From positions 1 through 6,272 of the forward strand of contig JAQUVR010000036.1 of NCBI GenBank assembly GCA_028693335.1: a stretch of 6,272 bases of DNA, read 5' to 3'. The stretch is from Candidatus Iainarchaeum sp. (lineage in GTDB: Archaea > Iainarchaeota > Iainarchaeia > Iainarchaeales > CSSED10-239). This document shows, piece after piece, positions 719-5,731 of this stretch (position 1 is its first letter; each line of letters opens with the position of its first letter). The translations under genes and the position numbers were made by a program. The notes under the pieces are model-generated. The model worked only from the letters and a program-made list of their open reading frames with translations. It made no database searches and was not told the origin of the DNA.

Positions 719-3535
719 TTATTTAATAATTTTTTTTAAAAATTCACCAGTATAGCTTTTTTTATGTTTTATAATTTCTTCAGGAGATCCTTTAGCTATT
801 ATATCTCCACCATATTTTCCACCATCAGGCCCAAGATCTATTATGTAATCACAAGATTTTATAATATCTAAATTATGTTCAATAACAACAACAGTATTTC
901 CTTTTTTGACTAATCTATCTAAGACTTCAATTAATTTTTTAACATCATGGAAATGCAGACCAGTTGTAGGTTCGTCTAAAAGATAAATAGTATTACCTGT
1001 ATCTCTTTTAGATAATTCTTTAGTTAATTTTATTCTTTGTGCTTCACCACCAGACAATGTTACTGAATTTTGACCAAGTTTAATATAAGATAGACCAACA
1101 TCCATTAATGTTTCTAATTTTCTTTTTAAAGATGGAATATTTTCAAAAAAATAATATGCTTCTTCTACTGACATATCAAGAACATCTGCTATGTTCTTAT
1201 TTTTGTATTTAATTTCTAATGTTTCTTCATTAAATCTTTTACCCTTACACTCTTCACAATCAACATAAATATCAGGCAAAAAATTCATTTCAATTTTAAT
1301 TTGTCCATCTCCTTGACAAGCTTCACATCTTCCACCTTTGACATTAAAAGAAAATCTTCCAGCATCAAATCCTCTGATTTTAGAATCCTCTAGTTTACTA
1401 AACAGATCTCTAATATCATCAAGAACCTTTGTGTATGTTGCTGGATTTGATCTAGGCGTTCTTCCAATTGGTGATTGATCAATTGAAATTACTTTGTCAA
1501 TTTTTTCTGGAATTTCAATATTTTTTACTTTACCAATATTCATTTTAGATTTATAAAACTTATTCATTAAAAATGGATAAAGTGTTTCATAAATTAAAGA
1601 AGATTTTCCAGATCCAGAAACACCAGTAACACAGCTGAAAACACCAATTGGTATTTCAACATTAATATTTTTTAAATTATTTTCTGAAGCTTCAATTATT
1701 TTTATAAACTCTTTAGTTTTTCTTCTTTCTTTTGGGATAAGAATAAATTGATTACCAGAAAGATATTGTCCAGTTAATGATTCTTTATTCTTCATAATTT
1801 CTTTTGGTGTTCCACTTGCAATAATATTTCCACCGTGTATTCCTGCGCCAGGTCCAATATCAATAACATAATCTGCTTGTTTTATGGTGTCTTCATCATG
1901 TTCAACAACAATTACAGAGTTACCAATATCTCTTAACTTAAATAAAGTATCAATTAATTTTTGATTATCTTTTTGATGTAAACCAATTGATGGTTCATCA
2001 AGAACATATAAAACGCCAGTTAGGTTTGTTCCAAGATTAGTTGCAAGTCTTATTCTTTGGGATTCTCCACCAGATAATGTTCCTGCATTTCTTGACAATG
2101 TTAAATATCCTAAACCCACTTTTTCTAAAAACTCTAATCTAGAATTAATTTCTTTTAGAATATGTTTTGCAATTTCTTCTTCTTTTTTAGATAATTTTAT
2201 TTTTTTAAAAAAATCAATTAATTCTAAAATAGACAAATCTGTGAGATCAACAATAGATCTATCAGAAATTTTTACAAATAATATTTTTTTCTTTAATCTT
2301 TTTCCATTACAACTTGGACAAGGAGAACTATTCATGAATTTTTCCATTTCTGTTCTTCTGTATTCTGATTCTGTTTGTTTATAAAGTCTTTGAGTTTGTG
2401 GTAATAATCCTTCCCATGTGCCAGTATAGTTAAAACTAGAAGTTCCATTTTTTCCATTTAAATTAAAATTAATATTATCTTCTGAACCGTACATCAATAT
2501 CTTATATTGTTTTTCAGTTAAATCTTTAATTGGAGTTAAAGCAGAAAAACCGTAAGCCTTTGCAACGGTTGCAAGATGTTGACCTCTCCAACCATCAATA
2601 GCATTTCTATATATTGCAATTGCACCATCTGCTATTGATTTGTTTTTATCTGGAATTATTAGATCTTCATCAAAATCCATTTTAATTCCAAGACCAGAAC
2701 ATTCTTCACAAGCACCAAAAGGAGAATTAAAAGAAAACATTCTTGGTTGTAGTTCTTCAAAGGACAAACCACAGATTGGACAAGACATCTTGGAAGAGTA
2801 GATCTTTTCTTTGTTGTCTATTAATATTTTAACAATCCCATCAGTTGATCTTTTTATAGCTAGTTCAACATTTTCAACAATTCTAGATTTGTTTTCTTGA
2901 TCTACTTTTATTTTATCAATTACAATATCAATATCATGCATTTTATATCTGTCAAGAATTATTTTTTCATCTGTTCTTTTAATTTCTGAGTTTACTCTAA
3001 CTCTTGTATAACCTTCTTTATTTAGATCTAAAAATAATTTTTCATAAGTTCCCTTTTTCTTTTGAATTATTGGGCAAAGGATTGTGATTTCTTTATTTAA
3101 AAAATCATTAAATATATTCTCTGAGATTTTTTGAGGGCTCATAGCTTGAATCTTTATGTTGTGATCTGGACAATAAGCTGTTCCTATCCTTGCAAATAAT
3201 AATCTTAAATAATCATAAATTTCTGTAACAGTTCCAACAGTAGATCTTGGATTTTTGGAAGTTGTTTTTTGTTCTATTGATATTGCTGGTGACAATCCTT
3301 CAATTGAATCAACATCTGGTTTTTTCATCATCCCAAGAAATTGTCTAGCATAGCTAGATAATGATTCAACATACCTTCTTTGACCATCAGCATAGATGGT
3401 ATCAAACGCTAATGTTGATTTGCCTGAGCCAGATAATCCAGTAATAACAACTAATTTTTCTTTAGGGATCTCTATATCTATGTTTTTTAGGTTATGTTCT
3501 CTTGCGCCTTTAATAATAATTGATTTAGAAGTCAT
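719..3535 (-). CDS. uvrA: UvrA excinuclease ABC subunit A (938 aa, full length, class I architecture)
   Basis: Two ABC ATPase modules are present: Walker A GLSGSGKST and GVSGSGKSS, and signature motifs LSGGESQR and LSGGEAQR followed by LYVLDEPSIGLH and IYLLDEPTTGLH. Zinc-module cysteines are also present (CPDH, CPICG...CEEC, CPSCNGKR, CEACQGDG...CEECKGKR). The N-terminus IKGAREHNLKNIDIEIP is canonical UvrA. Length is typical. Confidence 0.97.
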   Translation of the reverse strand: MTSKSIIIKGAREHNLKNIDIEIPKEKLVVITGLSGSGKSTLAFDTIYADGQRRYVESLSSYARQFLGMMKKPDVDSIEGLSPAISIEQKTTSKNPRSTVGTVTEIYDYLRLLFARIGTAYCPDHNIKIQAMSPQKISENIFNDFLNKEITILCPIIQKKKGTYEKLFLDLNKEGYTRVRVNSEIKRTDEKIILDRYKMHDIDIVIDKIKVDQENKSRIVENVELAIKRSTDGIVKILIDNKEKIYSSKMSCPICGLSFEELQPRMFSFNSPFGACEECSGLGIKMDFDEDLIIPDKNKSIADGAIAIYRNAIDGWRGQHLATVAKAYGFSALTPIKDLTEKQYKILMYGSEDNINFNLNGKNGTSSFNYTGTWEGLLPQTQRLYKQTESEYRRTEMEKFMNSSPCPSCNGKRLKKKILFVKISDRSIVDLTDLSILELIDFFKKIKLSKKEEEIAKHILKEINSRLEFLEKVGLGYLTLSRNAGTLSGGESQRIRLATNLGTNLTGVLYVLDEPSIGLHQKDNQKLIDTLFKLRDIGNSVIVVEHDEDTIKQADYVIDIGPGAGIHGGNIIASGTPKEIMKNKESLTGQYLSGNQFILIPKERRKTKEFIKIIEASENNLKNINVEIPIGVFSCVTGVSGSGKSSLIYETLYPFLMNKFYKSKMNIGKVKNIEIPEKIDKVISIDQSPIGRTPRSNPATYTKVLDDIRDLFSKLEDSKIRGFDAGRFSFNVKGGRCEACQGDGQIKIEMNFLPDIYVDCEECKGKRFNEETLEIKYKNKNIADVLDMSVEEAYYFFENIPSLKRKLETLMDVGLSYIKLGQNSVTLSGGEAQRIKLTKELSKRDTGNTIYLLDEPTTGLHFHDVKKLIEVLDRLVKKGNTVVVIEHNLDIIKSCDYIIDLGPDGGKYGGDIIAKGSPEEIIKHKKSYTGEFLKKIIK

Positions 3536-3625
3536 TTTTTATTCATATTTTGTTTTTTAATTAAAATAAATTAAAATTAGTTTTAATATATAATATATGT
3601 TAAAAACATTATATATTCCTTTCTA

Positions 3626-3869
3626 GGGGGGTGTTGTCCACTGCAACTGGTTTCGCTCAGTTGACACGCAGTATAACCGGTTTCGCTCGGTTAACGCGCA
3701 ATTATAATTTTCATAAAAAACGAAATGGAAAGAAAGCCTCGGGAAAGAAGAATGCGGTCGCTCAGTTGAGACGCAGTATAACTGGTTACGCTCAGTTGAC
3801 ACGCAATAAACTTTTTCAAAAAAAGTTTAATCAAAAACAAGATGAAAAGAAAACTCGGGAAAAAAAAAA
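3626..3869 (+). ncRNA. Candidate structured non-coding RNA (unclassified), consisting of two ~105-118-nt modules; the strand assignment is tentative
   Basis: This is a GC-rich island in a very AT-rich genome. It has repeated hairpins with a conserved 8-nt loop (GTTTCGCT / GTTACGCT) and compensatory stem substitutions between units A and B. AU-rich hairpins occupy equivalent positions in both modules (3708-3714/3725-3731 and 3808-3816/3820-3828). Both purine-rich tails share CTCGGGAAA. I recognise no known RNA family. There is no expression evidence. Confidence 0.35.
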
Positions 3870-3879
3870 CTATTTATAA
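3631..3879 (+). CDS. Hypothetical 82-aa highly basic repeat protein (doubtful; overlaps the repeat island)
   Basis: The frame is open from GTG 3631. The repeat periods (30 and 105 nt) are multiples of 3, giving TGFAQLTRSI / TGFARLTRNY / AVAQLRRSI / TGYAQLTRNK. Against coding: the G-run SD candidate abuts the GTG with no spacer. Arg is encoded CGC/CGG/CGA (7 of 8), whereas Arg is mostly AGA in the stretches of the other genes I translated. The 3' end also overlaps the convergent membrane-protein gene by 10 nt. Confidence 0.2.
   Translation: MLSTATGFAQLTRSITGFARLTRNYNFHKKRNGKKASGKKNAVAQLRRSITGYAQLTRNKLFQKKFNQKQDEKKTREKKNYL
3644..3811. repeat. Nested direct repeats: four 30-nt units (A 3647-3676, B 3677-3706, C 3752-3781, D 3782-3811), forming two tandem pairs 105 nt apart inside a GC-rich island
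   Basis: Hand alignment gives A/D 26 of 30 identical, A/C 25 of 30, A/B 22 of 30 and B/D 22 of 30. The core is CTGGTTTCGCTCAGTTGACACGCA. The stretch 3631-3700 has 37 of 70 G+C, versus 7 of 80 for the adjacent 3541-3620. Each unit contains a 6-N8-6 dyad: CAACTG/CAGTTG, TAACCG/CGGTTA, TAACTG/CAGTTG. Confidence 0.9.
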
Positions 3880-3884
3880 AATAG
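3860..3884 (-). terminator. Possible terminator of the membrane-protein gene: weak hairpin plus T10
   Basis: The minus strand reads CTATTT-TAT-AAATAG (3884..3870; 6-bp stem, 3-nt loop, stop codon TAG inside the 3' arm), followed directly by ten T (3869..3860). An oligo-T tract alone is a typical archaeal termination signal. As a bacterial intrinsic terminator the stem is weak. Confidence 0.35.
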
Positions 3885-4562
3885 ATCTGGATTACGATCC
3901 ACAAATTTATTAATAATCCCATTTAATAAAAATTGATCTCCTTTTTTAAGATAAATATATCCTAAGATCGATGCAAATAATGCACCAATTGCATCTAAAA
4001 TAAAATCAATCATAGTATCAATAACACCCAGTCTAGTGTTACAATATCCCTCATTTGGACAAAGATCTCTAGACTTTTGCATATTAGTACCAAATACAGA
4101 ATCCATTCCAAACTCAAAAATCTCCCAAATTGCACCAAAAGCCAAAGATATTGAAAAAATAATTACACAAATAAAAACCGGACTAGTTTTGATTTTTTCA
4201 GTTTTATATAAGACATACATAACCCCAAAAGCAATTAAACTTAATGCAAAACCAGAAAATACATGTAATAAAGAATCCCACCACCAATATCTAAAATAAA
4301 AATTTTGTACTTCTCCTAAAAAAACACCAGCATAAATAAAAAGAATTATGGCTAATTGTAGTTCTGATGGTAAATAAATACGATATCTTTTTTGAAAAAA
4401 ATACGGGATAAATATTAAAATAGTTGCAAGAATAGTAACAAAGAAAAAATCCCAGCGTTTATTAGCAAATTCAACAATTAAAGCTATAATTAATGTAAGC
4501 ACTATAAAATAGGTTATATATTTTTGAATCCTATCAAAACCAACAATATTTTTTTTAAACAT
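3870..4562 (-). CDS. Integral membrane protein, about 6 TM helices; possibly DUF2238/YjdF-like
   Basis: 230-aa ORF with six hydrophobic segments (YFIVLTLIIALIV, FFFVTILATILIFIPYFF, LQLAIILFIYAGVFLG, LLHVFSGFALSLIAFGVMYVLY, VFICVIIFSISLAFGAIWEIF, MIDFILDAIGALFASILGYIYL). The motifs D-x-L-x-H-x-x-x-GF, WE-x-x-EF and GT...D-x-x-x-D...IGA resemble my recollection of E. coli YjdF. That family call is memory-based and unverified. A weak AAGGT lies 11 nt upstream of the ATG. Confidence 0.85.
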   Translation of the reverse strand: MFKKNIVGFDRIQKYITYFIVLTLIIALIVEFANKRWDFFFVTILATILIFIPYFFQKRYRIYLPSELQLAIILFIYAGVFLGEVQNFYFRYWWWDSLLHVFSGFALSLIAFGVMYVLYKTEKIKTSPVFICVIIFSISLAFGAIWEIFEFGMDSVFGTNMQKSRDLCPNEGYCNTRLGVIDTMIDFILDAIGALFASILGYIYLKKGDQFLLNGIINKFVDRNPDLFYK

Positions 4563-4699: not shown

Positions 4700-5731
4700 A
4701 TGCTTTCAACTGCTAAATTTGTTTTTTCAAAATCAAAAATAATAGAAGAATATACAAAATTATCTAATATTAGTGATCTTCTAGCCTATAGTGTAAAAAC
4801 AAATCCTTATTTGGTATCAACATTACAAGAAAAAAAAGATTGTATGTTTTTAGTTCATCACATAAATGAAACAAAAAATATACAAAATAAGACAAATATT
4901 ATTTATATGTTGCACTCTCCAGAAAAAGAAGAACTAGATCTAATTTTTCAAAATGAGATTTCTTTTTTTATTGTTGATAATATTAAAGATTTAGAATTTT
5001 TTTTAGACTATATAGAAAAAAACAATAAAAAAGTTAATCTTTTACTAAGAATGAGAATAAAAGAATATACAGTTAATACAGGAAAATATTTTGTATATGG
5101 TTTTTATTCAGATCAAATAAATGAATTAATTCCAAAACTTAAAAAAAATAGAAATGTTGAAAAATTAGGTGTGCATTTTCATAGAAAAACACAAAACTTA
5201 TCAGAATGGAATTTAATAAGAGAACTTGAAGATTCTATATCTAATGAAACTTTTGAAATTATTGATTTTTTAGATATTGGAGGTGGAATTCCAATAGATT
5301 ATAAAAATATTAAAGCAGAAACCATTATAGATGTTTATAATAAAATAAAAGCATTAAAAGAATTTTTAAATGAAAAAAACATAAAAATGATAATTGAACC
5401 AGGAAGAGCAATTGCTGGGCCTAGTGGTAAATTAATTTGTAATATTAAGAATATTGTTGATAATACCATTTTTATTGACGCATCTGTGTTTAATAGTCAA
5501 ATGGATATTATTGTTTCAAATATTAAATTATTGGTAGATGGGGAAAGAGAATCAGGATCTTACTATGTAATCAAAGGATTAACTCCAGCGTCAGAAGACA
5601 TATTTAGATATAGAGTGTATTTAGATGATCCAAAAATTGGGGATCAAATAATCTTTTTAAATGCTGGAGCTTATATTTATCATACAGATCTTTTTTCTCT
5701 AGATAAATTAAAAGTTGAATTTGTTGATTAA
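4700..5731 (+). CDS. PLP-dependent decarboxylase family protein, fold-type III (Orn/DAP/Arg decarboxylase family 2), short (343 aa) and divergent
   Basis: Family motifs appear in the correct order: YSVKTNP (putative PLP lysine K33, codon 4796-4798), GVHFHRKTQ (HxHxGSQ-like), FLDIGGGIP (fits the family GGG signature), IIEPGRAIAG (EPGR motif), GLTPASED (position of the GP-x-C-x-S-x-D motif) and NAGAYIY (GAY motif). No SD is present. The AT-rich upstream region includes TATTTAAAA about 30 nt before the ATG. Confidence 0.82.
   Translation: MLSTAKFVFSKSKIIEEYTKLSNISDLLAYSVKTNPYLVSTLQEKKDCMFLVHHINETKNIQNKTNIIYMLHSPEKEELDLIFQNEISFFIVDNIKDLEFFLDYIEKNNKKVNLLLRMRIKEYTVNTGKYFVYGFYSDQINELIPKLKKNRNVEKLGVHFHRKTQNLSEWNLIRELEDSISNETFEIIDFLDIGGGIPIDYKNIKAETIIDVYNKIKALKEFLNEKNIKMIIEPGRAIAGPSGKLICNIKNIVDNTIFIDASVFNSQMDIIVSNIKLLVDGERESGSYYVIKGLTPASEDIFRYRVYLDDPKIGDQIIFLNAGAYIYHTDLFSLDKLKVEFVD

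Follow-up and report, generated by a model that had tools for sequence, protein, structure and literature searches.

A G+C-rich repeat island near uvrA in Candidatus Iainarchaeum as a probable cluster of a DPANN-wide, tRNA intron-related hairpin element

Introduction

Among the described systems, the introns of archaeal tRNA genes that are bounded by bulge-helix-bulge (BHB) motifs come closest to the element considered here. Transposed introns at non-canonical positions have been reported in Thermoproteales, and disrupted tRNA genes in DPANN archaea (PMC4090602; PMC5829648; PMC3293823), whose splicing endonucleases bear inserts that have been tied to broad specificity and to the many disrupted tRNA genes (PMC5829648). 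How archaeal tRNA introns reach new positions and new genes, and why the tRNA genes of DPANN archaea are so disrupted, are open questions. Here, we analyze a window of 6,272 nt, the contig JAQUVR010000036.1 of a metagenome-assembled genome (MAG) of Candidatus Iainarchaeum, a DPANN archaeon (Diapherotrites/Iainarchaeia), in which an island of repeats (positions 3626-3869) is located between the stop codon of a membrane-protein gene and a conserved AT-rich spacer that precedes uvrA. In our reading, this island is probably an expandable cluster of a hairpin element that is related to tRNA introns, is spread throughout the DPANN archaea and, outside tRNA genes, resembles a selfish insertion. The evidence consists of a repeat family, the covariation of its hairpin, its strand asymmetry, its intron geometry in tRNA genes, duplications of flanking DNA and differences in copy number among orthologous loci; from these, the element appears to be mobile, and the array seems to have no specific role in the control of uvrA.

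The element is like the BHB introns in that its copies in relatives have a 4-bp central helix with bulges of 2+1 nt at both junctions, and in that one conserved core recurs in different tRNAs at different positions; moreover, partial tRNA duplications adjoin the inserts, as in the Caldiarchaeum model (PMC3293823). Unlike BHB introns, however, the copies of the window lie outside any tRNA gene and have no BHB at their ends, and the same core is found free-standing, in arrays, at the ends of protein genes together with long duplications, and inside a MITE (miniature inverted-repeat transposable element). To our knowledge, a 26-nt core conserved across the superphylum has not been described for BHB introns.

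Other small repeated elements share part of these characters. The repetitive extragenic palindromes (REP) and bacterial interspersed mosaic elements (BIME), the systems of REP with REP-associated tyrosine transposases (RAYT), and the ERIC, Correia and Rickettsia palindromic elements are likewise short, G+C-rich, imperfect palindromes in many extragenic copies, with composite arrays and variability between strains. The element described here differs from them in being archaeal, in having its units in direct tandem instead of inverted pairs, in lacking a GTAG-type 5' signature and any RAYT or transposase found in the flanks, and in its tight link to tRNA genes and introns and its long, variable flank duplications. 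It is noncoding, small, multi-copy and assembly-breaking, as MITEs are, whereas neither the 54-85-nt form of the element nor the island has terminal inverted repeats, and the duplications, of 12-102 nt, vary in length. Finally, short interspersed nuclear element (SINE)-like and target-primed retroposons of eukaryotes, of which we know of none in archaea, are comparable in that their units are small, structured and RNA-like and have a link with tRNA genes and, as at loci related to the window, for their long variable target duplications and heterogeneous 5' junction; of this duplication feature the window array itself has only repeated tails. No A-tail is present and no reverse transcriptase occurs in the flanks; the likeness is one of resemblance only.

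A Hairpin Family Shared by DPANN Archaea

A 26-nt pattern, AACNGGTTNCGCTCNGTTNANNCGCA, was derived from the three intact units of the island (A, B and D) and scanned over species-representative genomes, in which it matches more than 119 stretches where about one is expected by chance. All the matches listed fall in archaeal MAGs, nearly all of them labelled DPANN or simply archaeon, with Woesearchaeota, Nanoarchaeota, Nanohaloarchaea, Forterrea and auto-labelled ‘uncultured archaeon/Methanosarcinales’ bins among the labels, and the genomes that carry the motif span 24-57% G+C. Several MAGs have multiple matches (DAOVBM01, for example, on at least 10 contigs), and at least 14 of 80 matches are no more than about 120 nt away from the end of a contig; viral contigs gave zero matches. 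The copy numbers are lower bounds, and the loci were selected with one exact pattern, which hides diverged copies. Covariance-model searches of Rfam 15 returned nothing for the island, even at E up to 10, and only tRNA for related loci (18 and 8); Rfam thus has no family for the motif, as the first-pass annotation of this DNA had supposed in recognizing no known RNA family, and no description of it was found in the literature by sequence string or by topic. That annotation had also favored a modular structured noncoding RNA (ncRNA); that such an RNA would be specific to this locus is contradicted by the more than 119 unrelated sites that share the motif of units A, B and D.

Outside tRNA genes the element is almost always intergenic and is polymorphic between close relatives; in fact, 116 of 123 copies fall outside open reading frames (ORFs) of at least 110 aa. 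Its orientation with respect to the neighboring ORFs is random (30:39 and 35:35), and near the T-loops of tRNAs the sense orientation predominates, with about 34 sense against 6 antisense copies. Clustering of the neighbors within about 4 kb of 119 copies revealed no enrichment of transposases, integrases, reverse transcriptases or any other protein family, and 8-kb windows around the same matches contained no RAYT, tnpA or tnpB gene. Nor is there a conserved target upstream, positions -10 to -2 being variable.

The core is a 6-bp hairpin, N-AACYG / CRGUU-N', with the loop GUUWCGCU and the tail ACRCGCA(A), after which a second hairpin usually comes. In 110 distinct copies the loop and the ACRCGCA tail are invariant, while the free positions of the stem change in a concerted manner. 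The pair (-1,19) is of Watson-Crick type in 107 of the 110 (C:G 71, U:A 20, G:C 11, A:U 5), a level of pairing matched by none of 10000 shuffles, and the pair (4,15) is U.G in 53, U:A in 30, C:G in 16 and G:C in 5. In the alignment of the family (A2), 97.8% of the stem cells are paired and the covariation score is 0.36, whereas shuffles score 0.10 and slid registers no higher than 0.06. Because the pattern served to select this alignment, only its free positions can vary. The same two positions are those that differ between units A and B, so that the compensatory changes noticed earlier in the window recur at the level of the family, and covariation, conserved loop and single-strand pairing together support the view that the hairpins are under selection as a base-paired structure.

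Full pairing is possible on one strand only, since the commonest form, U.G, is a C.A mismatch on the complement. A covariance model (R1) built from copies in other genomes, intron copies included, matches units A, B and D on the + strand of the window only, and its scores of 37.6-48.2 bits identify these units as homologs of the tRNA-intron copies. This strand asymmetry, the U.G pairs, the sense bias at tRNAs and the fit to BHB geometry suggest that the strand that folds is RNA.

A further correlation was noted within the core. In about 95% of the 110 copies, the nucleotide at position 22 (A/G) is complementary, in the Watson-Crick sense, to that at position 4 (U/C), and the relation is seen in the window at 3648/3666, 3678/3696 and 3783/3801; position 4 already pairs with position 15, and no helix register accounts for the correlation, which could reflect a base triple, an alternative pairing or the history of subfamilies. 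A closing helix outside the hairpin, tried in three registers, has no support beyond the pair -1:19. Downstream of the motif, Nanohaloarchaea have a conserved second hairpin, AAGCCAYGC-N4-GCRTGGCTT, and then a T-rich run (L019 and L031; also L026, L041, L076, L099, L100 and L110). The copies are found immediately 3' of a stop codon or of the end of a tRNA, and L019 and L031, from two different genomes, have them at the same position.

Copies in and Beside tRNA Genes

In relatives, the motif forms the 5' part of BHB introns of tRNA genes, at positions 37/38, in the D-loop and at 59/60, and the tRNA model of Rfam spans it in L004, L033 and L092. The boundaries of the BHB were established for the 59/60 class and for L097. 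In 11 of 14 T-loop cases, a stretch 50-60 nt past the motif is the exact complement of nt 54-57, followed by 2 nt, U60 and the matching T-stem strand; excision would restore the tRNA, with BHB geometry at 59/60. The central helix covaries also in this case, being UUCG/CGAA six times and UUCA/UGAA five times, and the remaining 3 of the 14 are interrupted by contig ends. In the D-loop intron of L097, read by hand, a is GUCC and b is GGAC. Furthermore, in the intron copies the AACYG arm can pair not only within the hairpin but with a distal CRGUU-like stretch (GGUU/CAGUU) just before the 3' splice helix; such a pairing would supply the outer helix of the BHB and make the intron removable by the tRNA splicing endonuclease.

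The motif is not limited to the interior of tRNA genes, and in several tRNAs it starts exactly at nt 74 (L003, L088, L100, L112). At L088, a 103-nt direct repeat (78-180 and 4365-4467, 99% identical) consists of the 3' half of a tRNA-Ser plus the motif element, and brackets a 4.3-kb segment in which Pfam detects only a DDE transposase fragment and a methyltransferase. This segment looks like an integrated element or a segmental duplication with the tRNA plus element as its boundary.

Free Inserts and a Miniature Transposable Element

Away from introns, 31 sites have an insert of 54-85 nt (0-7 nt, the motif and the second hairpin) placed between direct duplications of 12-102 nt, and about a quarter of the copies outside tRNA genes are accompanied by such duplications. 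The duplicated flank is the end of a gene, of which one intact copy survives, and the duplication edge abutting the 3' end of the insert lies 0-8 nt from a gene terminus, which may be nt 1 or the 3' end of a tRNA or else a start or stop codon. The 5' junction is ragged (0-7 extra nt) and the 3' junction is defined. In the inserts, one end is formed by the motif and the other by a hairpin unrelated to it, without terminal inverted repeats, and the types of second hairpin are common to intron copies and free copies; the length of the duplications is variable, at odds with the fixed-length target duplications of MITEs. Sites of this kind include L005, L008, L010, L014, L037, L038, L040, L043, L045, L050, L059, L096 and L118. 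At L038, the gene now reads through the insert, gaining about 20 codons.

A different arrangement is found in the MAG DAOVBM01, where the motif is inside a true MITE of 303 nt, found on at least 14 contigs (L011, L027, L074, L111, L113, L114). Its terminal inverted repeats measure 12 nt (GTAAGTAAAAAG / CTTTTTACTTAC), and its target duplications 8 bp. The interior of this MITE is highly structured and contains the motif and four further hairpins.

Organization of the Island

The cluster of the window comprises two modules, in which three hairpin units are intact and a fourth has decayed. On re-reading the DNA, the coordinates and the strings of stems, loops and units given in the first-pass annotation proved to be correct throughout. 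The repeat search recovers its two tandem pairs 105 nt apart as an 84-nt direct repeat (3653-3736 / 3758-3841, 77% identity, spacing 105), and the blocks that it saw in the tails as a 47-nt repeat (3706-3752 / 3823-3869, 72% identity, spacing 117). As to composition, G+C is indeed 37/70 in 3631-3700, in a window of 25.9% G+C overall, and the 7/80 given for the DNA just upstream is true for 3546-3625 and becomes 12/80 for 3551-3630. The core GGTTNCGCTCNGTT, allowing up to 2 mismatches, occurs three times in the window where 0.07 is expected, and 0 of 200 shuffles reach three; Tandem Repeats Finder does not report the array.

The island opens on the + strand with a ‘head’, GGGGGGTGTTGTCCACTGC (3626-3644), which is kept at the locus in relatives and also opens the paralogous copy L071. 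Unit A (3644-3670, +) pairs CAACTG (3644-3649) with CAGTTG (3658-3663) around the loop GTTTCGCT, continues with the tail ACACGCA and matches model R1 at 37.6 bits (E 1.4e-10). Unit B (3672-3703, +) has the same loop, GTTTCGCT, between TAACCG (3674-3679) and CGGTTA (3688-3693), and the tail ACGCGCA, both variable stem pairs being altered in a compensatory way relative to unit A; its score is 46.5 bits (E 2.8e-13). Tail 1, purine-rich on the + strand (3706-3752), contains an AU-rich hairpin at about 3708-3731 in the minimum-free-energy structure and is repeated as tail 2 (3823-3869, +) at 72% identity. Between the two, unit C (3750-3775, +) has lost its 5' arm and keeps the 3' part of the loop, the 3' arm and the tail (GAATGCGGTCGCTCAGTTGAGACGCA); it is not detected by model R1, in agreement with its earlier description as degenerate. 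Unit D (3777-3808, +) pairs TAACTG (3779-3784) with CAGTTG (3793-3798), including a terminal U.G, around the loop GTTACGCT, and is an exact fit to the pan-DPANN consensus (48.2 bits, E 8.4e-14). It is followed by a 10-bp AT-rich hairpin (3807-3829), TAAACTTTTT-caa-AAAAAGTTTA, found by the inverted-repeat search; alignment with the orthologous locus shows it to be preserved there, with compensatory changes at two of its pairs (GAACCTTTTT / AAAAAGGTTC).

Taken as a whole, the island has an ordinary folding energy (z = -0.74 for the + strand and -0.58 for the - strand), and the evidence for structure is therefore comparative and not thermodynamic. In a reading of the window by hand, units A-D have no complementary BHB a/b pair at the distance that a BHB requires, and the idea that these units themselves make up a BHB was rejected on sequence, as were C/D and H/ACA boxes, hammerhead- and hatchet-type ribozyme cores, integron attC sites and k-turns. 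Terminal inverted repeats are absent from the ends of the island; in 3500-3950 the search finds nothing but local hairpins and chance pairs of AT-rich DNA. The arrangement is not that of a CRISPR array: the units abut, 30 nt from start to start, in pairs, and the intervening tails are themselves repeated. On the - strand, tail 2 consists of oligo-T runs (T10 at 3860-3869) right after the stop codon of the membrane-protein gene and resembles an archaeal terminator, which it may be.

The Locus in Relatives

The orthologous loci, gathered by a protein homolog search and contig look-ups, differ in the number and integrity of their modules. The closest (L036 and L120-L122; 87% protein identity, 86-88% identity in the flanking DNA) have the head, one module with a degenerate and an intact unit, and the 10-bp AT hairpin; the paralogous copy L071, elsewhere in the L036 MAG, has the head and two modules. 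The loci L123 and L124 (84% identity) have the head and three units. In L125, with the same protein in another sample, three units adjoin uvrA (reverse complement, about 2080-2480), and all of them have GCTTTCGTT, with the stem broken by the change GCTCAG -> GCTTTCG; since all three share it, gene conversion or re-amplification within the array is indicated, and not independent drift. At 71% identity (L136) the units are diverged, with a compensatory change of C3:G16 to U:A, and at 70% (L126-L128) the head is followed by AATGAC and zero units, with uvrA nearby; L131 and L133 have neither head nor units. The equivalent of unit C is degenerate in L036, L123 and L124 and intact in L071, and several contigs break inside the island.

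In the first-pass annotation, loss of the island or breaking of its stems in relatives was to count against the reading given there, and both occur, in the loci without units and in L125. From these differences in modules, the array appears to be a labile insertion beside a conserved head and not a fixed regulatory feature of uvrA. The head itself, GGGGGG-N-GTCCA(C/G)T, is kept downstream of the DUF2238 gene (L036, L120-L128) even where the units are absent; it may represent a fragment from the 5' end of a tRNA, or else serve as a target site or promoter element. Its identification with an archaeal origin-recognition box was discarded, the polarity of the G-run being a misfit.

Interpretation

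The array most likely arose by insertion beside the conserved head, downstream of the DUF2238 membrane-protein gene, and would then have expanded and contracted through unequal recombination or gene conversion between modules. How the element itself would move is a matter of more tentative reasoning. We consider it possible, though clearly less probable than the reading just given, that a previously undescribed mobile element, DPANN-wide and derived from or identical with excised BHB tRNA introns, is recopied into DNA. An excised intron RNA, with the hairpin at its 5' end, would be copied to DNA and inserted at the termini of transcripts or genes; a target-primed or RNA-end-linked insertion would create long and variable flank duplications whose outer edges would coincide with tRNA nt 1 or 73 or with start and stop codons, and an element landing in tRNA loops would make new spliceable introns. 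The inserts resemble the products of such events in their long duplications of variable length, in their ragged 5' junctions and in the way their flanks coincide with gene termini, and we keep the proposal at this low level because no reverse transcriptase was found in the flanks of the copies.

Several observations weigh against regarding the element as a selfish, mobile insertion. No transposase, reverse transcriptase or other protein family that could drive mobility is enriched beside the copies. Few decayed copies are found among 690 kb of flanking DNA, and the 26-nt core is almost invariant across DPANN phyla at 24-57% G+C; a functional RNA or protein-binding module selected by the host fits this near-invariance at least as well as a selfish element does. 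Moreover, with the head and the hairpin at 3807-3829 conserved and a TATA-like box upstream, the composite could be a + strand ncRNA gene.

This last possibility, a stand-alone gene whose + strand transcript of head plus modules would act in trans, its loop recognized by a protein or an RNA, is in our opinion rather unlikely, and yet it has much in its favor: stem covariation with an invariant loop and tail and with a structure confined to the + strand; unpaired nucleotides that are conserved to an extreme degree across the DPANN phyla; the retention in the orthologue of the head and of the 3807-3829 hairpin, the latter with compensatory changes; the TATA-like run at 3608-3617; and the paralogous head-plus-modules copy L071. 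The copies in tRNA introns and trailers would then be further genes for the same RNA module, and archaeal C/D box sRNAs do occur both free-standing and within the intron of tRNA-Trp. A gene family, however, does not explain the motif inside a cut-and-paste MITE or the duplication-flanked inserts. The number and integrity of the modules vary among the orthologues, with a decayed unit in relatives and all the stems broken in L125, orientation relative to neighboring genes is random, and the folding energy of the whole island is ordinary. A DNA-level origin is more doubtful still. A hairpin that is short and G+C-rich, whose stem covaries and whose loop and flank are conserved, in many dispersed, extragenic and arrayed copies that break assemblies, might be the remnant of a single-stranded DNA transposon, REP/BIME-like or of the palindrome-associated kind (PATE) derived from IS200/IS605, recognized in trans by an HUH/Y1 transposase, and G.T pairs are possible in single-stranded DNA as well. 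We regard this as distinctly improbable: no tnpA, tnpB or RAYT-like gene lies near the 119 copies, there is no fixed upstream target, and the sense bias at tRNAs (about 34:6) and the intron geometry point to RNA. IS200/IS605 insertions make no target duplication, in contrast with the duplications of 12-102 nt found here.

The first-pass annotation had also contemplated a 6-N8-6 dyad array bound by a regulator as double-stranded DNA, an operator or iteron controlling uvrA. The phased direct repeats with dyad symmetry, the spacings of 30 and 105 bp and the location 91-276 bp upstream of uvrA are indeed those of such arrays. This reading has become very hard to sustain, as the motif occurs at more than 119 unrelated sites, tRNA genes included; the arms covary so as to maintain pairing instead of conserving a half-site, and pair on one strand, the commonest U.G form being C.A on the other. 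Relatives that all retain uvrA have from 0 to 3 intact units, units being absent from one with uvrA nearby, and the island lies beyond the conserved, promoter-like AT-rich spacer. Least credible of all is that the repeats encode a small repetitive protein. An 82-aa ORF is present on the + strand (3631-3879), gene callers predict a 104-aa ORF over the orthologous island, and the two share 18/25 identical residues; this similarity is only that of a translated DNA repeat, the 82-aa ORF has no Pfam match, no protein is maintained across the indels of 37 and about 105 nt that distinguish the orthologues, and the same DNA motif is found in tRNA introns and noncoding positions.

The probable reading of the island as a cluster of an intron-related, insertion-like element has consequences beyond this locus. 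One hairpin core is found in three settings, namely inside BHB introns that occupy three positions in tRNAs, precisely at the 3' ends of tRNAs, and in free inserts with duplicated gene ends, and model R1 is a searchable marker for the gain, loss and movement of introns across the superphylum. The element accounts for one class of assembly breaks in DPANN MAGs, and it is a caution that G+C-rich islands in AT-rich genomes are not necessarily locus-specific regulators. If the core were a protein-recognized RNA module, a new RNA motif would be added to those conserved in organisms with very small genomes; if instead the element were mobile and derived from introns, archaea would have their own equivalent of SINE-like retroposition, which would directly explain why the tRNA genes of DPANN archaea are so unusually disrupted.

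Other Features of the Window

The island is flanked by uvrA (719-3535, - strand, start codon at 3535) and by the gene of the DUF2238-type membrane protein (3870-4562, - strand), beyond which a PLP-dependent (pyridoxal phosphate-dependent) decarboxylase gene is located at 4700-5731 on the + strand. The AT-rich spacer before uvrA (3583-3625) is near-identical in the orthologue L036 according to the alignment and has TATA-like runs on either strand, the run at 3608-3617 being just upstream of the island; its composition suggests that it may serve as a promoter. A promoter and terminator scan of the window did not exceed the shuffle expectation, with models that are of bacterial type and unsuited to archaea, and neither ARAGORN nor Rfam detects a tRNA in the window. 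Directly downstream of uvrA, on the - strand (126-705), an ORF of 92 aa (126-404) that matches the YafQ toxin family below threshold (53 bits against a cut-off of 87) and a DUF2683 ORF of 99 aa (406-705) resemble a toxin-antitoxin-like pair.

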